Part shown: one piece after another, positions 2,094 to 20,616 of the stretch
Position numbering within the stretch: the stretch's first letter is position 1
Layout of the letters: every line of letters starts with the position of its first letter
Assembly: GCA_044371785.1 (NCBI GenBank)
Contig: JBILTA010000817.1
Span: forward strand, 1 to 44,805
Source: Pirellulaceae bacterium
Lineage (GTDB): Bacteria > Planctomycetota > Planctomycetia > Pirellulales > Pirellulaceae
DNA length: 44,805 nucleotides
Direction: 5' to 3'
Translations under genes and position numbers: made by a program
The notes under the pieces: generated by a model
Seen by the model: the letters and a program-made list of their open reading frames with translations, nothing else
Told to the model about the DNA's origin: nothing
The model's database searches: none

Positions 2094-3624
2094 TTATTTG
2101 AGGATTCTTGGATGGATCATTTACTGGTGCAGATGCCAACTGTCCAGCTTGCTTGGTAAGTTCCATTTGCTGTTGTTGTGCCATTGCTTGCTGCTGCTCT
2201 GCCTGGATATCTTGAGTGGACTTAACAAGATTCAGGACATCAATTCCTTGAGATGCTGCTAAACGCTTAATTACTTCCTCAGGATTGACATATGTCTGAA
2301 TAGCATCAGGTCCCATCGTCTGAGCAATTGTCATCAGGAAGGAACCAAGGCTCTCTCGATCTTGCCCACGTCCCAATGCATTGATACCAGCGACAATGGT
2401 TGGCTTGACAATGTTTTTGGGAATACGTGGGATTTCACCAGTCTTCTGGAAGACATTCAGCTTCCGGTTCAAATAGGGAACAAGGAAGTCCACAGTCAGC
2501 ATACTAAATAGTCCGCCAAGCTGTGACTCCAATTCCATTTGAGTCATCCGCACTTCTTCTGCAGTTGTTCGTTCAGACTGTCGTACATTTAAAATCAAGA
2601 ATGCATCCGATAAACGACGCTCCAGTTGGAGAGCCATCTCATATGCAGTCCTAAAGTCTGCAGTCTTCCCAACCTGTACGACACCAATATCATCAGGTCG
2701 TCCCTGAACGATGGCACCGTTGCCTGCAGCGGCCAGTGTGGCCGGTTTGGTTGTGCTTGATGGCGACACAACAAAGACAACCTTTGCTGCTGCTGCAGAG
2801 CCTTCTACAAGTGCCTGGGATAGTGCTTCAAGGGAACGAAGGTCTCCGATAAATTCTTCGACCCTGCCCCTGCCGTACATCTCTCCATCAACCGTATTGA
2901 AGCGCAGTGCGATCCATGGATTTGCATCAAGTGGTGCCTTACCAAATGACTTCTCAATCACTACATCATCAACTTCTTGATGCCAGACGTAGCGATTGTT
3001 GTCACGTCGAACGTGTGTGTAGATATCAACCTCATCTTGATTGTTATGCTTGTCTGAGCCAACCTGATTCGGTTTGCGCTCTGGCAGCATATCCTCGATG
3101 AGTTTCCTTGAGACTCGCTCTTTGGTTACGATTTCAATGACGTTACCATCTCCATCTCGGTCCAACACATAGCGATTAAGTGGATACAACCTCAGCCCTT
3201 CTTTGCCCATGTAAATCAGTGCATTTCCTGCAACCACCAAATGCTTCAACGCTTGGTGCACAACGACTCGATCATCGCTGGCAGCAATCGATTCCATAAT
3301 GGTTCTCTCGATCTTTGCAAAAGCAAGATCAAGTTCTGATTTAATACCGGGTCCGTACTCCTGACCAAGCATTGATTCATCCACTTGAAGCTTAAAGAAG
3401 CTTGTCTGTGGAGGAAGCAAAGCAAGCATGAGCTTTGCAGACAAAGTGACTACACCTTTAGCACCTACGGATTGCCAAGGTGTTGGCAGGATCCTGTTGC
3501 TTTTGTAGTCTTCTTCATCATCACGGATTAGGTAAGGCAACGTAAGCTCTGCTGCTCTACGTGCTGTGTGTAGGTATTGAGTGCGATGACCGTACAGTAA
3601 ATCATACCTTTGTTTAGCCGACAT
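2056..3624 (-). CDS. Portal (head-tail connector) protein, T7 gp8-like
   Basis: 522 aa, ATG start, in the position upstream of scaffold and capsid. The Gln-rich acidic C-terminal tail is typical of T7-group portals. Confidence 0.85.
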   Translation of the reverse strand: MSAKQRYDLLYGHRTQYLHTARRAAELTLPYLIRDDEEDYKSNRILPTPWQSVGAKGVVTLSAKLMLALLPPQTSFFKLQVDESMLGQEYGPGIKSELDLAFAKIERTIMESIAASDDRVVVHQALKHLVVAGNALIYMGKEGLRLYPLNRYVLDRDGDGNVIEIVTKERVSRKLIEDMLPERKPNQVGSDKHNNQDEVDIYTHVRRDNNRYVWHQEVDDVVIEKSFGKAPLDANPWIALRFNTVDGEMYGRGRVEEFIGDLRSLEALSQALVEGSAAAAKVVFVVSPSSTTKPATLAAAGNGAIVQGRPDDIGVVQVGKTADFRTAYEMALQLERRLSDAFLILNVRQSERTTAEEVRMTQMELESQLGGLFSMLTVDFLVPYLNRKLNVFQKTGEIPRIPKNIVKPTIVAGINALGRGQDRESLGSFLMTIAQTMGPDAIQTYVNPEEVIKRLAASQGIDVLNLVKSTQDIQAEQQQAMAQQQQMELTKQAGQLASAPVNDPSKNPQINDGQITQPEQPA

Positions 3625-5072: not shown

Positions 5073-5754
5073 GTTCAAAGAAAGATGGCATTCTTGCTCG
5101 TTGCGTTTCGATCAATCCTTCCGCTTTTCCTGCATACATCAGACTGTCACTCTGGTCCAACCAGAATTGCTTGTCGAGATATTTATTGTCCGATTTCTTC
5201 AACGGCTGCATCACCCAATTAATGGTTGCCTTCCTGAGCTTATCCAGACTAGGAGACACAGTGAGGCCAAGCTCACGACATACCAGGCTATTCGTTGCAA
5301 CATGAACTTGTTCATCTCTTGAGATATCAGCGCTTACTGTTCGCATTCCAGCGTCACCATTAAAGCGGAAGAATGGGAGTAGTACGAAGAAAATCGCACG
5401 CTCGGCAACCATTGCTTTGGCGACAGTGTGATCAGGATGCGAGACCCAAGCTTCCCGGAGGCGCATTGCTTCGGCTTCAGCTTTCTCGTCAACGCCGTAA
5501 GCGTTCGCGATGTAGCCGAGAGCCAAGTCGTGGTTTTCTTCGTCCTTGATATTGGACAGCAGTAGGTCGCGTGATAGCTCTGGAACTTCATTGGTTAGTG
5601 CATCTTGAATAAAATCCCCAACGGGGAGTTCCATATGCCGCAAAGCAAGGGCTCGGAAGATTGTTTCCTCTGAGCCTTCTTTGACAGCTCCGGCTGTGGT
5701 CTGAACAGGTGACCACTTACGTTTACGATTAAACAGTTTCTGATACGGGTTCAT
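5041..5754 (-). CDS. Ferritin-like di-iron protein, candidate ribonucleotide reductase beta (R2-like) subunit
   Basis: Two ExxH motifs (DEENHDLAL and RDEQVHVAT) with an intervening Glu (VAERAIFF) about 30 aa before the second. The ATG at 5754 overlaps the alpha-subunit stop (TAATG). The track start at 5766 is TTG. Confidence 0.6.
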   Translation of the reverse strand: MNPYQKLFNRKRKWSPVQTTAGAVKEGSEETIFRALALRHMELPVGDFIQDALTNEVPELSRDLLLSNIKDEENHDLALGYIANAYGVDEKAEAEAMRLREAWVSHPDHTVAKAMVAERAIFFVLLPFFRFNGDAGMRTVSADISRDEQVHVATNSLVCRELGLTVSPSLDKLRKATINWVMQPLKKSDNKYLDKQFWLDQSDSLMYAGKAEGLIETQRARMPSFFEHANPNLPQYA

Positions 5755-13389: not shown

Positions 13390-13410
13390 ATGTCGGAGTG
13401 GATAGGTGGA

Positions 13411-14253
13411 TTAATTAAAACGTGGGCGCTTGTAGCCCTGATCAAAGCGTGGGAAAAATTCATCCAACCCTTTGATGATGAAGTCCATGTTGTACCAACC
13501 ATCACGGCGGACGTTGTTGACCATCATCATGATTGATGGCACCAAGGCACTACGCACCTCAGCTGGTAGGTACTGCCATGTCGTACCGCCCTGTTCCCCC
13601 TTGAGGCGGTTCACCTCTTTGATCACACCAGCTTGAACACGGGAATAGATCCCTTCATTCAGCACACTGGCAAACCAGCGGCCAAATCGTGTCGAACAAT
13701 CCGCTGGCACTTCTGCAGCCTTGGGCCGTCCAAAGTAAGAGCGATAGCACTCCAATTGCAGCAGGCCAAGCGGTCCTTCGTAGGCTCTGGCGGTGTCGGG
13801 GAAATTCCGCAGGATGGAGTTGTTGACTTCCTTGGCGGCCTCCTCGTGCATCAGACCTGCTTCTTTGCGCAGGATCAGATCCAGCGAGACACCAATCAGC
13901 TTGTCCGTGATCTCATCGGCATACCGTCCAGCCTTGGTGTTCTTGCCCCGGTAGAGCTTGAGCAGCGACTTGAAGGTGTCCTGGGTCATGGCCAAGGCTT
14001 CCTGAGCCCGGCCTTTGCCGCTCGTTGTTTGGACCGGCAGAATTCCGGCCAGATCGCTGAGATCGCCTGCAGTGACTGACTTCTTTGGACCGGCAGTTTT
14101 GGCGAGATGAGTTCGTAGCGACTCCAATGAGGAACCGCCGGTGTGCCCATACAGCGTCTTGGTCGCCCCACTCAGCGAGAAGTGGGGGACACCCTCCACA
14201 ACCAGGCAGTCGGTGTTGAAAAATTCTGAGAAGAAAGGGGTGGCCGTCTTCAT
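13411..14253 (-). CDS. Hypothetical protein (280 aa), immediately downstream of RNAP
   Basis: A long ATG-initiated ORF in the GC-rich block. I could not recognise a family, though a Bro-N/KilA-N-like N-terminus is possible. Confidence 0.65.
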   Translation of the reverse strand: MKTATPFFSEFFNTDCLVVEGVPHFSLSGATKTLYGHTGGSSLESLRTHLAKTAGPKKSVTAGDLSDLAGILPVQTTSGKGRAQEALAMTQDTFKSLLKLYRGKNTKAGRYADEITDKLIGVSLDLILRKEAGLMHEEAAKEVNNSILRNFPDTARAYEGPLGLLQLECYRSYFGRPKAAEVPADCSTRFGRWFASVLNEGIYSRVQAGVIKEVNRLKGEQGGTTWQYLPAEVRSALVPSIMMMVNNVRRDGWYNMDFIIKGLDEFFPRFDQGYKRPRFN

Positions 14254-14254
14254 A

Positions 14255-16594
14255 TCAACAAAAGAAATAGGTGGATTCGATCACGGATTCCGGTTCAAGG
14301 TCGCCAATGATCGGGGGGTCTGTCTCTGCTCCGATTTGTCGGGCAAAGTCGCGTAGGTAATCGTGCTCAGCAAACAGGTGCATGTAGGTTTCCCGTACCA
14401 GAGTGGACAGAACTGACATGTCTGTAGCCCTGCACAGCACAGAGTCATGGATCAATGCAATCGGTGCATCGAACCGCAAGGTGGACAAGTGAAGTAAGGA
14501 CGCATCCAACGAGTGGATCAGGTTGGGACTGGTGGCATTCCTGTGGTGGTTGAGATCGACCTGATCGGTATCACCTTTGGCTACCGACAGCTTGCATTCA
14601 CCCAACAGTTGCAGCTCAATGCGGACAACGTCCTTTTTCATCAGCTTTTGCTTGACGACAAAGCCTGATGGTGTGGTCCATTGAAGTTGATCAGCGCCGC
14701 GATTGATCGCGTTGCTCACCTCTTCTTCAATCCAGCGCATCACGCGCATCGGACCTGGCACAATCCGCTCCATGGCGGAACGCACCGCTTTCACCACCTC
14801 ACTGAGCTCCTCTTTCTCCAACTCAATGCCATCCTCTGCAAACGCTTCACGGATGTAGCCGCGGTTGCTGTAAGGCTTGGCGTTGTAGGGAACGGTCATC
14901 ACCACACGTTTCGTCTTTTTCCGATCCATGTGCTCTTGCAGCCGCTTTGGGCAGTGAGGCTTAGCTGCCTCTGCCACCACCTTGTAGGCATCGGCTGGTT
15001 TATCACCAGGCAACACATTGACAAGGCGGGCTGTGGATTGATCCCTGGCTAGACCAGCGAGGATCTGTAAGCCAGAGCAGGTGGCATCGGTGGCCACCAT
15101 CAGTCCTGTGAACTGCCGATCCGCTGCAATCACGCAGTGATAGAACTCCTCACAGGCGGCCAGGAATTGCCAAGGTTCATCAGCCACCTCCCACTCAGGC
15201 AGCGACCCAATCGGATCGGTGGCGACTTTTGTGATGATTGTGAAGTTGTTCGCTGTCCATTCCAGCCGTTCAGCCATGGTCGCCTTGTCCAACCCGTAGG
15301 TTGTGGCGACCTGAAAGGCCAACCATTCCTCCGCTTCCGGAGTCATGTACGACTCCTCAGCAAACCTCAAAAGACTCTTACCGAAGTCCGTGTCTTGTGG
15401 GGTGAGGAAGCCAGGGATTGGATAGGCTCTTCCCCTGTAGTCAAAGCTCCAAGGAATAAAGAACCGCTCCACACCCTTGAAGCGACTGACCGCTTCCATG
15501 GTCATGCGTGTGCGACAAGAGCGTTTGAACTCTTGTGCATTGAGGTTCATCGCCTCTGCTGCACGTCTTCGATAATCCTTCCGGCTATCGTAGTTCTCAG
15601 CAATATCCACGGGCTTGGCTGGTAGCTCGTGGTGGACGATGGGACGGAACTTGCCCACAGGCCTTTGCAACTCTTCTAACTCTTCCGCCACAGCCACAAT
15701 GAAGGGGTTGAGACGGAAGGCAACCTTCTGAATCTTGTTCAGAAAAGCCAGGGGCACCTCCCCCTGTATACATGTCGGATCGCCACGACGCACTAAATCA
15801 TGGCCGCGCATTACCTCATTGAGGATGTAGCCGCCTGGGCGTTCATTCGTCCAATCGTTGGGCTCGATCAGCATCGGCCAGGTCAATGGCGCAAACAGCT
15901 CCGACTCGCTGATGATCTGATCTTTGATCTTGAGGAATTCAGGGGTGGGTGCGATGTAATTCACCCGCCGCTTGCCCTCTTGACGGATCGTGCGCGCTAA
16001 CCAGCCGCTGCTTTGGATGATGCAATCCAGCAGCCAGCCGCCCAACTTGACCCGATTGACCCGGCCCCATTGGCTCCAGCTTTCCACCTCATAGCGGTTC
16101 ATCAGGGTTTTGATCACCACCAATTTCTGGTGGGTGCCAATCGAGCGATGCCAGTAGTTCTGTTTCAGTGTGTTAAGAAGTCCTGGAGCGCACCGCTCGT
16201 AGTGACGCATCTGACACTCCGCCTCGATGGCTGAGCCAATCGCATCACACACTTCGGTGACCTGATCGCTGCCCTTTTTGGTGCTGAACACCTTGTCGAA
16301 GGTGATCTTCAAGGCGATGGCACCGGCCGCTAAGGGTTCAATCTCCGCCAGGTACTGCCGGATTTCCTTGAAGTGGGCCCCGGTTTTGCCCTCATGAATC
16401 CGGTTGGCCGTGTCTTCGATCTGGGCTACGAGCACCGGCAGAAGGGACTCGATTGAGGCCACGCCGTACACCGTTGCACTGGCGTAGCTCTGCTCCTCGA
16501 GTTTGCGGGTGTTCTCCCGCAGGCGTTTCAGACCGAGGCGGATCTGATCGCGCTCCAATTGGATCTGCTCATCGATCTGAGCGGGTGTGGCCAT
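14255..16594 (-). CDS. T7-like single-subunit DNA-directed RNA polymerase
   Basis: Motif A region ATDATCSGLQILAGL, motif B KTKRVVMTVPYNA, motif C ALIHDSV, C-terminal ..TYFFC. ATG at 16594 (the track start at 16600 is TTG). Confidence 0.95.
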   Translation of the reverse strand: MATPAQIDEQIQLERDQIRLGLKRLRENTRKLEEQSYASATVYGVASIESLLPVLVAQIEDTANRIHEGKTGAHFKEIRQYLAEIEPLAAGAIALKITFDKVFSTKKGSDQVTEVCDAIGSAIEAECQMRHYERCAPGLLNTLKQNYWHRSIGTHQKLVVIKTLMNRYEVESWSQWGRVNRVKLGGWLLDCIIQSSGWLARTIRQEGKRRVNYIAPTPEFLKIKDQIISESELFAPLTWPMLIEPNDWTNERPGGYILNEVMRGHDLVRRGDPTCIQGEVPLAFLNKIQKVAFRLNPFIVAVAEELEELQRPVGKFRPIVHHELPAKPVDIAENYDSRKDYRRRAAEAMNLNAQEFKRSCRTRMTMEAVSRFKGVERFFIPWSFDYRGRAYPIPGFLTPQDTDFGKSLLRFAEESYMTPEAEEWLAFQVATTYGLDKATMAERLEWTANNFTIITKVATDPIGSLPEWEVADEPWQFLAACEEFYHCVIAADRQFTGLMVATDATCSGLQILAGLARDQSTARLVNVLPGDKPADAYKVVAEAAKPHCPKRLQEHMDRKKTKRVVMTVPYNAKPYSNRGYIREAFAEDGIELEKEELSEVVKAVRSAMERIVPGPMRVMRWIEEEVSNAINRGADQLQWTTPSGFVVKQKLMKKDVVRIELQLLGECKLSVAKGDTDQVDLNHHRNATSPNLIHSLDASLLHLSTLRFDAPIALIHDSVLCRATDMSVLSTLVRETYMHLFAEHDYLRDFARQIGAETDPPIIGDLEPESVIESTYFFC

Positions 16595-16648
16595 ACGCAA
16601 TGAGTGTGAAGAATTGTTGAGACTCGGTGACTCGACTGAACTTCTAAG

Positions 16649-16657
16649 CTGTCCACT
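16649..16657 (-). promoter_or_regulatory. AGTGGACAG motif copy 1 (reads CTGTCCACT on +)
   Basis: An exact 9-mer, sitting inside the 8-bp inverted repeat 16621-16628/16665-16672, about 55 nt upstream of the RNAP ATG. Confidence 0.5.
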
Positions 16658-16680
16658 CAGGGATACCGAGTCAGGGCAGT

Positions 16681-16703
16681 AAAAAAGCGGGTGTTACCCC
16701 GCT
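16681..16703 (-). terminator. Rho-independent terminator after int/attP
   Basis: The - strand reads AGCGGG-GTAACA-CCCGCT followed by TTTTTT. Confidence 0.6.
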
Positions 16704-16704
16704 T

Positions 16705-16713
16705 GTGTCCACT
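16705..16713 (-). promoter_or_regulatory. AGTGGACAG motif variant (AGTGGACAC)
   Basis: A one-mismatch copy abutting the terminator hairpin. Confidence 0.35.
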
Positions 16714-16735
16714 AGAGCTATAGGTCTAGGTCGCT

Positions 16736-16776
16736 GATTTTGAGTCGAGTGCGTCAACCAATTCCGCCACGCTCCC
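16736..16776 (-). other. tRNA-Leu(CAA)-like 5' half (acceptor 5' strand, D arm, anticodon loop); candidate attP core
   Basis: The - strand reads GGGAGCG-TG-GCGGAATTGGTTGACGC-A-CTCGA-CTCAAAA-TC. The D-arm block GTGGCGGAATTGGT.GACGC is the canonical bacterial tRNA-Leu sequence. Similarity stops 2 nt after the anticodon loop, and there is no T arm or 3' acceptor strand. Confidence 0.5.
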
Positions 16777-16858
16777 AATGGATTCCAGCGATTCTCACGG
16801 GTGAGAACCGACCAGAAATTCCTGGTTGGGGCCAAATTAGCACCCCTCTCGACCGGAC

Positions 16859-17797
16859 CTAGATGGCATTCGCGCAGTTGACAACAGCAGCATACGTGTT
16901 GTGGACGTAGCGCTCGGTGGTCTTCACATTTGAATGTCCCATCGTTTGCTTGACGTGCATCACGGGCGTACCCGCTGCAACCTGCCACGTGCCGTAGCTG
17001 TGCCGCAGTGCATGGAAGACGTGTCCACGGGTGACCGTCTGGTCCTCGTACATCACGAATTCCCGCACGCGGTTGAACTCCCGTTGAATCCTCTGGCGAC
17101 TGTGCCAATAGTCACCAAAGACATACGCATTGGAGGCGCGTCCATCCAACAGCCGATGGGCCATGGGAATCAGACGCTCGTTCAACCCCACCTGGCGGTA
17201 GTTGCTGGTCTTGGTCCGTGATTCAGGGGTACCACCGACATGAATGAACGGTTGGTCCATCCTGAAATCAAAGTCCCAAACACGCAGCTTCCTCAGCTCG
17301 CCTTGCCGCAACCCTGTGTAGGCAGCAAACAAGACAAGATCAGCCAGTTCATCACGTCCGTGGTTCTTTGCAATCGAGCACAAGTGATCGACTTGTTGTT
17401 GCGTAAACCACTCTGTTCGACCCTCTGGTGTCTGATAACGCCTGATAACAGGCATATCATTGATCAGATGGTGATCGAGTAGACACTTGAATGTCGTGCT
17501 GATTGTTGACAGAAACTTGTTCGCACTGTTTTCTGTCCACTCACGTTCATCCTTGATGTCCTCTGTGATGTCACGGATCAGCTTGGAATCCATGGCCTTG
17601 AGGGGGATGGTTTCCCCGTCCATGTGCTCCTTCAGTTGTTTGTGGTGACGCCGTGCATTTGTCCCTTGACTCTTGGCCTCTCGATTCAGAGACCAGTTGG
17701 GATGATTCTCACAGGCAAACTCAAACGCCTGATCAAAGTTCGTGATCTTGGCCTTCTGAGGTTTCCGGTCGAGATAGCTCTGGAGTTTCGATGCCAT
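16859..17797 (-). CDS. int: Tyrosine recombinase / phage integrase
   Basis: Catalytic residues are visible: ..YTGLRQGELRKL.. (Arg), HALRHSYGT (HxxR), GHSNVKTTERYVH (Tyr). The likely ATG is at 17797 (the track start at 17836 is GTG). Confidence 0.9.
   Translation of the reverse strand: MASKLQSYLDRKPQKAKITNFDQAFEFACENHPNWSLNREAKSQGTNARRHHKQLKEHMDGETIPLKAMDSKLIRDITEDIKDEREWTENSANKFLSTISTTFKCLLDHHLINDMPVIRRYQTPEGRTEWFTQQQVDHLCSIAKNHGRDELADLVLFAAYTGLRQGELRKLRVWDFDFRMDQPFIHVGGTPESRTKTSNYRQVGLNERLIPMAHRLLDGRASNAYVFGDYWHSRQRIQREFNRVREFVMYEDQTVTRGHVFHALRHSYGTWQVAAGTPVMHVKQTMGHSNVKTTERYVHNTYAAVVNCANAI
17533..17541 (-). promoter_or_regulatory. AGTGGACAG motif copy inside int (reads CTGTCCACT on +)
   Basis: An exact 9-mer in the same orientation as copy 1. 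Confidence 0.4.
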
Positions 17798-18143
17798 ACA
17801 AATCCTCTTTGATTTGATCAATGAGTCTTTGGCCACGTTTGGTTAAACGTAGCTGTAGTCTTCTTCTGTTCGTAGGGTCCTGCTCCTTGATGATGAGGTT
17901 AAAGCCAGGCTCCCCTAATCGATTCTCTTTAGACAACCTATCAGTGTTTCTACTGCTACTCGATGTTTCAAACTTGAGATCTTCCTCAAGTGCGGTCTTG
18001 TGGCAGTATTCATGGGAAGCGATATACAAGAACGTTGCAATCAGCTGCCCAGGCACTTCCCGATCATAGGTTAGTAGACGTTGGATTGCTTTTAACAATC
18101 GCGCCACATCCGGATCGGTTAGCTGTCTTCTGAGGGGGTCCAT
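17733..18143 (-). CDS. MarR-like winged-helix DNA-binding protein
   Basis: ..QLIATFLYIASHEY.HKTALEEDLKFETSSSSRNTDRLSKE..GLI....DPTNRRRLQLRLTKRGQRLIDQI.. fits the MarR wHTH pattern (D..DrR...l.LT.kG). ATG start. The 3' end overlaps int by about 65 nt. Confidence 0.65.
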   Translation of the reverse strand: MDPLRRQLTDPDVARLLKAIQRLLTYDREVPGQLIATFLYIASHEYCHKTALEEDLKFETSSSSRNTDRLSKENRLGEPGFNLIIKEQDPTNRRRLQLRLTKRGQRLIDQIKEDLYGIETPELSRPETSEGQDHEL

Positions 18144-18185
18144 TGAGGAAGCTCGGACGATCTAATTCTAGACGCAACCTACCTA

Positions 18186-18194
18186 AGTGGACAG
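18186..18194 (+). promoter_or_regulatory. AGTGGACAG motif copy, embedded in the palindrome TGGACAGTCCA
   Basis: An exact 9-mer, 43-51 nt upstream (in gene sense) of the marR-like ATG at 18143. Confidence 0.5.
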
Positions 18195-18275
18195 TCCATG
18201 CAGTGTCAGTGCACCACATGTCGTTAAAGGATGAGGCATCGAGCCCCACATATAGTGCACCGAAACTGATTAGCG

Positions 18276-18440
18276 TCACTGATGGGCCTCCACGAGGTCT
18301 TGCTTGCCTCCAAAACCTAGTACATCCGTATCATCCATTAGCTGCTCATGGGCCAGTTGTAGCACCTCATCTTTATGCGGATGCTGCATAACCTGATCCA
18401 TCAGTTGAACTAGTCGCCGTTGAAACGTGGTTTCACTCAT
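18276..18440 (-). CDS. Small hypothetical protein (54 aa)
   Basis: MSETTFQRRLVQLMDQVMQHPHKDEVLQLAHEQLMDDTDVLGFGGKQDLVEAHQ. Its ATG overlaps the upstream stop by 8 nt (gATGAGTGA). It is below the track cutoff. Confidence 0.35.
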   Translation of the reverse strand: MSETTFQRRLVQLMDQVMQHPHKDEVLQLAHEQLMDDTDVLGFGGKQDLVEAHQ

Positions 18441-18798
18441 CTTGAGTTGGTGGAAATAGGTGATGAATAGAGTCGTGATCTGCCACGGTGAATTCGATAT
18501 CCGTGCGTGTGATCAATTCTTTAACCTTGGCTTCTGCTGCATGTCGCTTTTGATAGACATACTCAGTCACCTTTTTGGTCTTTAGATCTGTTGCTCTGAT
18601 GATGCAACATACGCTGCTCGGTAACTCCCATCCCCCCACTTTCCAAGACATAACCTCTTCATACGTGTGAGGAATGAAGTCGCTTTCATCAGCATCTTTG
18701 TATTCTTGCCAGTTGTTTGGAAAATAATTCTTCTTACCACTCATCAGACTTAAATACTTGGATAGTTTGTGTAGATAACTGAGCACCGGACAATTCAT
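18433..18798 (-). CDS. Hypothetical early protein
   Basis: 121 aa, ATG at 18798 (alternative ATG at 18744). No recognisable motif. Confidence 0.5.
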   Translation of the reverse strand: MNCPVLSYLHKLSKYLSLMSGKKNYFPNNWQEYKDADESDFIPHTYEEVMSWKVGGWELPSSVCCIIRATDLKTKKVTEYVYQKRHAAEAKVKELITRTDIEFTVADHDSIHHLFPPTQDE

Positions 18799-18955
18799 AA
18801 CATGCCAAAAGGGCGCGTTCTTGATTGGCGGCCATGACGTGGAACACCTGGCCGCTGGCTGCTACACAATTGAATTGTTGTAACTTACCTATATAATCTG
18901 ATGAGAGGAAAATACTATCACTTCTCACTTTGATCAAAGGTAAACAGTGAATCAA
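18734..18955 (-). CDS. Hypothetical early ORF, weak
   Basis: The track start is TTG, and the first ATG (18835) would leave only 33 aa. Confidence 0.25.
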   Translation of the reverse strand: MIHCLPLIKVRSDSIFLSSDYIGKLQQFNCVAASGQVFHVMAANQERALLACYELSGAQLSTQTIQVFKSDEW

Positions 18956-19082
18956 TCTCTAGCCATATGCAACTCTCAATATCCCCCTGCAATAAGATGT
19001 TTTCTGCATCATGCCGGCGTAAGCCAGCACTGACGCCACGCTCAATGCATTCAGCCAAGATTGCGTAGATGTTGGGTTTCAT
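18918..19082 (-). CDS. Hypothetical early protein (54 aa)
   Basis: The track start at 19130 is GTG and lies inside the terminator hairpin. The ATG at 19082 gives MKPNIYAILAECIERGVSAGLRRHDAENILL.. Confidence 0.4.
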   Translation of the reverse strand: MKPNIYAILAECIERGVSAGLRRHDAENILLQGDIESCIWLEIDSLFTFDQSEK

Positions 19083-19120
19083 GGCCCTGTTGGTTGATGA
19101 TTGTGAAAACTGTGATGCAC

Positions 19121-19146
19121 AAAAAAACACGGGTGTTATCCCGTGT
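19121..19146 (-). terminator. Rho-independent terminator
   Basis: The - strand reads ACACGGG-ATAACA-CCCGTGT followed by TTTTTTT, 10 nt after the stop of ORF 19156..19341. Confidence 0.6.
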
Positions 19147-19155
19147 CAATAACTA

Positions 19156-19341
19156 TCACTGACGATACATGCAATAAGCATCATCAATGAGTGATAGCTT
19201 GGCTTCATCAATGCAGCCAACATATGACAGGTGTCTAGACATAGCAGCGGTGGCTGACAAGCAGCCAACAGTCGCTAAAGAATACACACCACAAGCAGCA
19301 GCAAAGATGCCAACATTCTTGAAGAGTTTGCGTGTGTCCAT
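19156..19341 (-). CDS. Small membrane or secreted protein (61 aa)
   Basis: ATG start. It has an N-terminal hydrophobic segment (NVGIFAAACGVYSLATVGCL) and five Cys residues. Confidence 0.5.
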   Translation of the reverse strand: MDTRKLFKNVGIFAAACGVYSLATVGCLSATAAMSRHLSYVGCIDEAKLSLIDDAYCMYRQ

Positions 19342-19464
19342 GATTACTATCGGGTGAGAAAGTAAAAACCGATTGCTAATGCAATCAACGGTGGAACTGG
19401 TAGTAGGTGGATCATGTGATCGGTTGAGGGTGTGTGAGTCCCTCAGAAAGCCCGCCTATCCTGT

Positions 19465-19473
19465 AGTGGACAG
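19465..19473 (+). promoter_or_regulatory. AGTGGACAG motif copy
   Basis: An exact 9-mer in the loop of cctg-TAGTGGA-cagg, intergenic, about 125 nt upstream (gene sense) of the ATG at 19341. Confidence 0.5.
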
Positions 19474-19492
19474 GTAGGGCATAGTGAGAGAG

Positions 19493-19681
19493 TCAAATGC
19501 GTCCCATGGCTAGGTCATCCATAAATTCAGCCAGTGTGTCAGCTGGTAGGAAGGAAGCCAGGCGATCTAGTAATCCTTGAGCATCGAATCCACCTTCAAA
19601 AGTCAACCCCGAGAAGTCCTCTCGGATGTCAGCAGAAGGAAGGTTGTTGTCAGGATCGTATGGCTGATCAGCTGTGAACAT
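19493..19681 (-). CDS. Hypothetical acidic early protein (62 aa)
   Basis: The track start at 19768 is TTG. The ATG at 19681 gives MFTADQPYDPDNNLPSADIREDFSGLTFEGGFDAQGLLDRLASFLPADTLAEFMDDLAMGRI. Confidence 0.45.
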   Translation of the reverse strand: MFTADQPYDPDNNLPSADIREDFSGLTFEGGFDAQGLLDRLASFLPADTLAEFMDDLAMGRI

Positions 19682-19734
19682 GGTGTGTTGTTCAGATGGA
19701 GCAGTGCGAACACTGCAGAAAGCCTTCCTGCCGT

Positions 19735-19743
19735 AGTGGACAG
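19735..19743 (+). promoter_or_regulatory. AGTGGACAG motif copy
   Basis: An exact 9-mer between the inverted repeat ctgcc (19728-19732) and ggcag (19746-19750), about 55 nt upstream (gene sense) of the ATG at 19681. Confidence 0.5.
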
Positions 19744-19940
19744 AAGGCAGAGTGCAATGATCAAACAATGCGTGTTGCTCCGCTTACTGCTTGTGCTCCG
19801 TGTGCGTTAGCACGCACTTCGCGGTCAGAGACCCATGCCGCTAGTCGTCACCACTGGTTGATCCAGTAACGGAGCTGTCTTTAGTTGTCTAGATGCTGCG
19901 CACTGCAGCGGTCTGCTGTGCTGAGGTGATGGTATCCGTT

Positions 19941-19949
19941 AGTGGATAG
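19941..19949 (+). promoter_or_regulatory. AGTGGACAG motif variant (AGTGGATAG)
   Basis: A one-mismatch copy in the non-coding control region. Confidence 0.35.
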
Positions 19950-20055
19950 GTTGTCAATGGGTGTGTGGCAATCTGTTGGATGTCACACGGTCAGGCGGTG
20001 GATCTGCCCAGCATTCGCGCTGGTTCGCTTCGCCTATGCAGCAGTATGCTGCCTA

Positions 20056-20064
20056 AGTGGACAG
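20056..20064 (+). promoter_or_regulatory. AGTGGACAG motif copy
   Basis: An exact 9-mer in the non-coding control region. In gene sense it is followed by the hairpin gcagca-tac-tgctgc. Confidence 0.5.
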
Positions 20065-20433: not shown

Positions 20434-20616
20434 ATGAACCATTTTGATTTCAACCAGTCAAAACGACTGGAATCCTTCCGAATCTCTTCCAGGAAACCAG
20501 TCCGACTGACAGCCACAGTCAATTGGGCCACCCATCAGGCACTGATTGAACGAAGTAACAAAGAAGGACGCAGTGTTAGCAACTTAATGGCCTACATCTT
20601 AGAGACCCATCTGTAA
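20434..20616 (+). CDS. Ribbon-helix-helix (CopG/Arc/MetJ-type) DNA-binding protein; the only convincing + strand gene
   Basis: 60 aa. ..KPVRLTATVNWATHQALIERSNKEGRSVSNLMAYILETHL fits a beta-strand, helix, G.S, helix RHH pattern. Confidence 0.6.
   Translation: MNHFDFNQSKRLESFRISSRKPVRLTATVNWATHQALIERSNKEGRSVSNLMAYILETHL

Follow-up and report, generated by a model that had tools for sequence, protein, structure and literature searches.

The stretch of DNA analysed here (contig JBILTA010000817.1; 44,805 nucleotides, hereafter the window) is the circularly permuted genome of a T7-like cyanophage (cyanopodovirus) near S-CBP3. Its long open reading frames (ORFs) all lie on the minus strand, and its closest isolate is the Synechococcus podovirus S-CBP3 with 76.8% identity across the integrase gene (int) and the gene of a MarR-like protein. 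A short repeated element with the core T(G/A)TCCAC is spread over the early region and the adjoining RNA polymerase and replication genes. Its copies are probably operators of the phage's own MarR-like winged-helix regulator (17733-18143), a reading to which we assign a probability of about 0.6.

Genes and repeats of the early region

The genes and control region referred to below are as follows, with genes on the minus strand given in gene sense.

20434 to 20616, plus strand: divergent gene of a 60-aa ribbon-helix-helix (RHH) protein; the sole plus-strand gene, transcribed away from the early region
About 20300 to 19930: control region, first in gene sense and followed by small early ORFs
18143 to 17733, minus strand: MarR-like gene; winged-helix regulator of 136 aa, the proposed binding protein
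17836 to 16859, minus strand: integrase gene int (Pfam E = 2e-23)
16594 (ATG) to 14258, minus strand: RNA polymerase gene

Past int, the order in gene sense is an attP-like block, an intrinsic terminator, the RNA polymerase gene and the replication genes. Homologues of the RHH gene occupy the same position in S-CBP3, where they are unannotated, in S-CBP1 and in two uncultured loci (L004, L009). Scans of the motif region for tRNAs and Rfam families gave no matches.

The 9-mer AGTGGACAG occurs in seven exact copies in the window against a shuffle mean of 0.46, and none of 100 shuffled sequences reached seven, which bears out the enrichment over shuffled controls that was anticipated in the initial annotation. 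Six of the copies had been listed there with correct positions and strands (16649-, 17533-, 18186+, 19465+, 19735+ and 20056+; signs refer to the 9-mer as written), and the seventh at 14402+ had been overlooked. Both one-mismatch variants named at that time (16705- and 19941+) are present. As one-mismatch matches are frequent throughout the window (22 in total vs 13.1 expected), a variant was counted only with other support, which exists for 19941, 13397 and perhaps 16705. The variant at 19941+ forms a full dyad and overlaps a sigma70-like promoter. The variant at 13397+ (AGTGGATAG) is intergenic, lies just upstream of the gene for the single-stranded DNA-binding protein (SSB), is kept in L084 and probably belongs to the family. 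The family thus extends to 13397-14410 and is not confined to a 3.4-kb stretch as had been claimed. The late region of the window contains no copies, and a search for a late-region promoter motif found no 8-mer shared among the intergenic gaps of the window. The members of the family, with strands referring to the gene-sense pattern, are these.

20050 to 20064, minus strand: candidate operator, CTGTCCAC-ttag-GCA in gene sense; exact 9-mer with the extended pattern; leftmost copy; lies in non-coding control DNA ahead of the main early promoter
19933 to 19949, minus strand: candidate operator with full dyad cTATCC-ACTAAC-GGATA; one-mismatch match
19729 to 19743, minus strand: candidate operator, CTGTCCAC-tacg-GCA; exact 9-mer with the extended pattern; 54 nt upstream of the ORF start at 19681
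19457 to 19473, minus strand: candidate operator with full dyad CTGTCC-ACTACA-GGATAG; exact 9-mer; about 124 nt upstream of the ORF start at 19341
18165 to 18194, minus strand: predicted MarR-gene promoter with candidate operator; exact 9-mer; aligned in 15 phages
16705 to 16713, plus strand: weak copy GTGTCCACT; one mismatch; abuts the int terminator just past attP; membership doubtful
16649 to 16665, plus strand: candidate operator with full dyad CTGTCC-ACTCAG-GGATAC; exact 9-mer; between the int terminator and the RNA polymerase start
14396 to 14410, minus strand: operator-like copy CTGTCCAC-tctg-GTA; exact 9-mer; inside the 3' end of the RNA polymerase gene
13397 to 13405, minus strand: variant copy CTATCCACT; short gap between genes, 7 nt before the SSB start codon; kept in L084

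The distances of about 45-125 nt from copies to ORF starts were given correctly in the initial annotation, as was the palindrome TGGACAGTCCA at 18186. The orientation flip described around the MarR-like and int genes is weaker than it appeared. Within int, the copy at 17533 specifies the residues Glu-Trp-Thr, and S-CBP3 and L084 keep it as part of the coding sequence. Relatives encode this tripeptide with the same 8-mer inside their RNA polymerase genes as well, so that the copy is best treated as a coding coincidence. The copy at 16649 is a full palindrome whose counterpart is sense-oriented in S-CBP3, L007, L008 and L009-L016. The copy at 16705 is poorly conserved, being retained in L007 and degenerate in S-CBP3 (GTGCACA) and L084 (GTGCATA). 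Because of these palindromic and poorly conserved copies, the apparent flip is local turnover and not a second direction of transcription, and the proposal that the left-hand group drives transcription antisense to int falls with it.

Shape of the element and its position in predicted host-type promoters

In gene sense the consensus reads (a/c)cT(G/A)TCCAC-N4-G(T/C)A. Three copies of the window are complete inverted repeats of the form T(G/A)TCC-N6-GGATA (16 bp; 19933-19948, 19457-19472 and 16650-16665), and the pattern T[GA]TCC-N6-GGA[TC]A has six strand matches where 0.36 are expected. Outside the window such dyads are present in P-SSP7 at 294 and 5980 and once in L101. The centres of the half-sites are 10-11 bp apart, and many copies combine a strong left half with a right half reduced to G(T/C)A. 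An operator of the MarR family is expected to be a (pseudo)palindrome of about 16-20 bp with half-sites roughly one helical turn apart, and this is the shape found. The predicted site of about 16 bp, T(G/A)TCC-AC(T)nnn-GGA(T/C)A, with its half-sites one helical turn apart, would suit a homodimer.

A promoter scan of the early region gave a sole strong sigma70-like promoter, TTGACA-17-TACCAT at 19929-19957, and the motif fills its 17-nt spacer. The orthologous leftmost early promoters of L005, L009 and L031 (TTGACA-N17-TATTGT) likewise contain the motif inside the spacer. Ahead of the regulator gene the motif appears to occupy the -35 region of a host-type promoter, with TGTCCA at 18193-18188, a 17-nt spacer, a predicted -10 hexamer TAGAAT at 18170-18165 and the ATG at 18143. 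In an alignment of the sequences upstream of the MarR-like gene from 15 phages the 7-mer, the 17-nt spacer and TAGA(A/G)T with invariant A2 and T6 are kept, and the flanks diverge. The site therefore lies over the regulator's own promoter in 15 phages, the promoter being deduced from sequence. A site on the own promoter is the usual autoregulatory layout of MarR-family proteins. A sigma70 -10 hexamer fixed at five bases past the core was considered as a general part of the element and dropped, since the final T of the hexamer is unconserved across sites; it holds at some promoters only. In one clade (L074 at 3175-3260 and 3378-3460, L077 and L055) the early promoters read TGTCCAC-N6-TTGACT-N17-(C/T)AT(A/C)AT and the ATG follows 6 nt later, which implies leaderless early mRNAs.

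Two copies are centred in long three-tier inverted repeats (19711-19759 and 19440-19490, minus strand) with hairpin z scores of -3.3 and -4.2. Their stems differ in sequence, GGCTTTCTG follows both, and the repeats may act as RNA hairpins, as cruciforms or as extended operators. If the element acted at the RNA level, hairpins with the motif in the loop might direct processing or attenuation of the early polycistronic transcript, much as RNase III sites do between the early genes of T7. The tip position of copies 19735 and 19465 in these hairpins fits such a role, and the sense bias of the motif described below is compatible with it. Against this, almost none of about 40 other copies folded from the window and relatives was significant, it is the sequence that is conserved and not the pairing, there is no Rfam match, and some copies lie upstream of likely transcription starts (20056 and the copy in the MarR promoter). 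A role in RNA is thus most unlikely. A hairpin common to all copies was rejected, as among about 45 copies folded structure was seen only at 19735, at 19465 and weakly at 16649, and no conserved secondary structure with compensatory changes was found across the copies.

Occurrence in relatives and competing readings

Relatives were collected as 80 IMG/VR loci fetched through the RNA polymerase gene (71-86% identical). A profile search found the MarR-like gene in 10 of these polymerase-anchored loci and, in addition, in S-CBP3 and L084; 25 loci lacking the gene and having at least 3 kb of early region served for comparison. Across the relatives there are 134 sense and 60 antisense occurrences of the bare core TGTCCAC, with about 46 expected per strand, and part of this excess is coding, e.g. 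the Met-Ser-Thr start of the helicase gene. The extended pattern is found 84 times in sense vs 2 times in antisense orientation. Its density is 3.19 per 10 kb in the 10 loci with the MarR-like gene vs 0.39 in the 25 loci without it, an eightfold difference, and nearly all matches in the latter are coding, L031 being the sole exception. Three further contigs from genome bins that have the MarR-like gene carry the motif as well. Viral contigs queried with the MarR protein alone gave one locus, and a query with the tail-tube protein for the late region of the closest relatives gave two short contigs only.

Placement is conserved in the relatives too: copies recur at the leftmost early promoter, about 50 nt upstream of the MarR start, between the int terminator and the polymerase start (-48 to -71) and about 150 nt before the polymerase stop. 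The last of these, at 14396-14410 in the window, spans the codons Leu-Ser-Thr-Leu-Val. Relatives invariably use TCC for this Ser and GTA for the Val, with the neighbouring Ser codon varying freely, and the core is present at this site in 36 of 81 polymerase genes vs 13.0 expected from synonymous resampling. The codon constraint and this excess point to selection on the DNA itself.

Among isolates, MarR-like genes are found in S-CBP1, S-CBP3, P-SSP7, P-SSP2, P-SSP3, S-TIP37 and many pelagiphages. In P-SSP7 there are 11 copies of T(G/A)TCCAC in sense orientation, 8 of them within the first 8.2 kb, including one at the MarR promoter (4488), one near the polymerase gene (5980) and one at the polymerase 3' end (8221); the pattern in S-CBP1 and S-CBP3 is similar. 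Syn5 and DSL-LC07, both without a MarR-like gene, have no early-region cluster of the motif. The recognition helix SRNTDxL or SRCTDKL, present in the window, S-CBP1, S-CBP3 and P-SSP7, is paired with T(G/A)TCCAC. In S-TIP37 the helix reads SRAADWL and the sites read CTGTGC-N6-GCA(CAG). One lies at the left end (570), one in a gap between early ORFs (1431), one on the MarR promoter (3603) and one beside the polymerase gene (5044); two of them are perfect palindromes, CTGTGC-N6-GCACAG. In P-SSP2 both the MarR promoter and the sequence ahead of the polymerase gene carry TATACAY-N4-GYA. All copies within one genome change together. Pelagibacter phage HTVC019P (L098) shares a different motif, AGTGAGTAA, among positions 330, 3279, 4636 and 4657, which fall at the left end, ahead of the MarR gene and in the stretch that separates int from the RNA polymerase gene; this suggests that pelagiphages with a MarR-like gene have the same three-place layout.

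The initial annotation had compared the element with the core of T7/T3-type promoters. If the copies were promoters of the phage's single-subunit RNA polymerase, CCACT would correspond to the CACT core of the T7, T3 and SP6 promoters, initiation would occur at a nearby conserved G or A downstream, and the sites would serve transcription of the early genes, of the replication genes and, in a positive feedback like that from phi1 of LUZ100, of the polymerase gene. Like the promoters of T7, T3, SP6 and Syn5, the element is a largely asymmetric and mostly co-oriented sequence of 15-20 bp with CAC(T) and a purine at a fixed distance downstream, and the spacing CACT-N3-G equals T7 -7 to +1. The extreme sense bias is in favour of this reading, and so are T7-like positions (left end, ahead of the polymerase gene and within its 3' end, and ahead of SSB), further copies that L009-L011 and L078 have in the 3' end of the helicase gene, some copies lying at gene ends as in T7 class II promoters, and the synonymous-site constraint at the polymerase-gene copy. 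In L009-L016 the motif is the sole conserved block between the terminator and the polymerase start and has no accompanying -10 hexamer, and LUZ100 has a mapped phage promoter at that very place (PMC10134795).

Several observations oppose it nevertheless. The full inverted repeats in the window and P-SSP7 and the palindromes at the orthologous S-TIP37 sites are unexpected for promoters of single-subunit polymerases. The core stays constant while the residues equivalent to T7 R746, N748, R756 and Q758 vary (R, E, K, S in the window; S, E, R, S in L009; R, K, E, H in L013; N, E, R, K in P-SSP7), an argument which assumes that the T7 contacts hold in this polymerase group. Unlike a polymerase promoter, the element tracks the MarR-like gene: relatives without this gene, with polymerases 71-77% identical, lack the motif in non-coding DNA. 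Moreover, there are no copies in the late region of the window, one copy occupies the -35 region of a predicted host-type promoter, two window copies face away from genes, and the copies agree at only about 11 of 16 positions, whereas two verified Syn5 promoters are identical over 20 nt. A promoter function for the phage polymerase is therefore quite unlikely. The Syn5 promoter itself was ruled out as a model, since it has no match in the window within 3 mismatches and the polymerase is only 39% identical to that of Syn5.

The core might also be recognised by a host factor, either as an unusual part of promoters for the host RNA polymerase or as the site of a host protein, DnaA being one candidate. 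T(G/A)TCCAC equals positions 2-8 of the DnaA box TT(A/G)TCCACA, an identical 7-bp core, and its two variable positions (G/A at 3, and C/A at 5 in P-SSP2) are the degenerate positions of that box (PMC4285127). P-SSP7 has exactly TTATCCACA at 651, the core is conserved from Prochlorococcus to Synechococcus phages, and it occurs bare at the left ends of relatives without the MarR-like gene. The first and last positions of the box are not kept, however. The base after CAC is A in just 26 of 102 sites and never among the listed left-end sites of relatives without the MarR-like gene, the base preceding the core is mostly C, and the copies do not conform to TTWTNCACA with T at 1-2 and A at 9. The conserved arm N4-G(T/C)A or GGATA, 4-6 bp downstream, is foreign to a DnaA box. 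S-TIP37 has replaced the core wholesale at all copies, Syn5 has no cluster although it infects the same host strain, WH8109, and most copies lack a -10 hexamer at a fixed distance. Recognition by a host factor is very unlikely in view of this evidence. Readings as NtcA, CRP or sigma54-like sites were dropped for want of the defining bases.

The left ends of relatives without the MarR-like gene have sequence features of their own. L065 (about 5315-5420), L067 and L071 carry tandem 10-bp repeats, CCTGTGTCCA, and clusters of units containing TGTCC, which may be an array adjacent to the terminal repeat like that of T7; these arrays show that the TGTCC core exists beyond the phages with a MarR-like gene. 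A conserved hairpin, GACTCTCCCTGTTAAGGG(T/G)GAGGAGAGTC, is present in the first transcribed region of such relatives (L021, L023, L029, L050, L065 and L067), some 75 nt past the left-end TGTCCAC.

The MarR-like regulator as candidate binder

The regulator matches PHROG 9665, 'transcriptional regulator', with E = 2.6e-43, and its homologues in S-CBP3 and P-SSP7 are annotated as MarR family. Profile matches to MarR-family structures are weak (E = 0.001-0.05), and Pfam MarR_2 is found in 6 of 11 homologues with E values of at least 0.0017. A host-encoded homologue with 46% identity and no adjoining integrase is present in Prochlorococcus sp. AG-442-M23 (L102, a 545-kb contig, 2303-2812). A search for prophages in bacterial genomes found none; it returned phage-like contigs binned with metagenome-assembled genomes and one Prochlorococcus gene without an adjoining integrase.

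As an alternative to promoters, the initial annotation had already considered operator half-sites for the MarR-like or the RHH protein. The evidence fits the former better. RHH dimers bind short repeats in either orientation, and the divergent RHH gene (20434-20616) faces the control region. Its gene, though, is restricted to the window, S-CBP3, S-CBP1, L004 and L009, and it is absent from P-SSP7, L005, L014, L016, L017 and L078, all of which bear the motif. The MarR-like protein is for this reason the better candidate binder. Arm-type sites of the integrase beside attP were considered as well, since two copies flank the attP-proximal terminator; most copies are 1.5-3.4 kb from attP, too far for arm sites, and both attP-proximal copies lie on one side of the attP core. 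Operators of the RHH protein and integrase arm sites are both highly improbable.

Just downstream of int, a 41-nt block (16736-16776, minus strand) resembles the 5' half of a tRNA-Leu gene with acceptor stem, D arm and anticodon stem. It is homologous to the attP region of P-SSP7 and kept in all relatives with int; ARAGORN and Rfam did not call it. The homologous P-SSP7 block contains the known attP match to tRNA-Leu (PMC1079782, PMC8776855). Two canonical intrinsic terminators with near-identical stems (GGGATAACACCC / GGGGTAACACCC) are located in the early region on the minus strand, one at 19126-19147 after the ORF 19156-19341 and one at 16685-16704 after int. Host transcription must consequently read through or restart to reach the phage polymerase gene.

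The operator reading thus builds on a sequence family with dyad symmetry, on its conserved positions and on its link with the MarR-like gene; binding, the direction of regulation and the biological role are predicted. The regulator would be made from the early transcript and bind the sites as a dimer. Once bound, it might close the early promoters to the host RNA polymerase, act as a repressor of its own promoter and limit transcription into the phage polymerase and replication genes. The outcome could be an early-to-middle shut-off, or an integrated genome that is kept quiet.

Some observations weigh against this interpretation. A simple palindromic operator does not need the asymmetric 'AC' held by the spacer, and the strong co-orientation with the genes (84 vs 2) better suits a promoter or an orientation-dependent roadblock. 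The phages with a MarR-like gene are also nearest to each other by RNA polymerase, so that the link with this gene is partly confounded by ancestry. Relatives without the gene have the bare TGTCCAC in sense orientation one to three times at their left ends, which makes a recogniser other than this MarR-like protein possible. P-SSP2 combines an SRNTD helix with TATACAY, so that helix and site do not follow a clean code, and the MarR-like protein of the window itself has no Pfam match.

The operator reading agrees with a published model of temperate T7-like phages that places MarR binding sites around the promoter preceding the phage RNA polymerase gene (PMC10134795). LUZ100 and its relatives (PMC10134795 and its reference 14) share the gene order MarR-like regulator, integrase, terminator and RNA polymerase, a MarR-int operon transcribed from a host-type promoter and proposed MarR sites just upstream of the polymerase gene. 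In contrast to that group, the site is here also found on the main early promoter, in leaders between early ORFs and inside and after the polymerase gene, and the hosts are cyanobacteria; the likeness rests on the layout, not on LUZ100 site sequences. MarR sites near the polymerase gene have hence been proposed before for temperate T7-like phages (PMC10134795), and the cyanophage site appears to be new: in the literature searched, the motif is nowhere described, and there are no usable mapped transcript starts for P-SSP7.

A second likeness is to the stoperators of mycobacteriophage L5. The L5 repressor gp71, which is not a MarR protein, acts on 13-bp non-dyad sites in 20-30 copies genome-wide. 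Both elements are short, largely asymmetric and repeated, with one copy on an early promoter and others in gene gaps in nearly one orientation. The cyanophage element differs in having 5-10 copies in roughly the first third of the genome, several of which are true inverted repeats. The orientation bias and the intergenic positions are thus as expected for stoperators and the copy number is low; a block of elongation would be conceivable by analogy.

Integration has been shown for cyanophages, and neither lysogeny nor a repressor or operator has been reported (PMC8776855). It is a tempting, though unlikely, idea that T7-like cyanophages, P-SSP7 among them, possess a functioning genetic switch made up of these sites and the MarR-like protein, with closed host-type early promoters and orientation-biased, L5-stoperator-like roadblocks that keep transcription from reaching the polymerase and replication genes. 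If so, an integrated or newly injected genome could be held silent in phages that are currently regarded as purely lytic and repressor-less.

T7-like cyanophages rank among the most abundant viruses that infect the main photosynthetic bacteria of the ocean. Many of them carry an integrase, an attP site and a MarR-like gene, the purpose of which has been a question since P-SSP7 was sequenced in 2005. A defined 16-bp site, common to P-SSP7, S-CBP1, S-CBP3 and many uncultured relatives and now set apart from the promoter of the phage polymerase, names a likely regulator and its targets and makes this question experimentally testable.

Two minor observations concern the surroundings of the polymerase gene. 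Between the RNA polymerase and SSB genes, which are adjacent in relatives, the window has a 280-aa ORF (13411-14253, minus strand) without a match in a comparison limited to PHROG. A second sense-only motif, TTCACA(C/A)TCAT, is found in the window at 16600-16610, 19097-19107 and 15234-15244 (minus strand), in L024 at 5775, 7335, 9360, 11569 and 14795 and in many other loci. Nearly all relatives have it 1-14 nt upstream of the start codons of the RNA polymerase, helicase and other genes, whether or not they carry the MarR-like gene. Taken together with its flank (aATTCTTCACACTCAT), this second motif agrees with the verified Syn5 promoter (ATTGGGCACCCGTAA) in 8 of 15 positions in register, and it may be a real promoter of the phage polymerase, giving near-leaderless mRNAs, or a translation signal.

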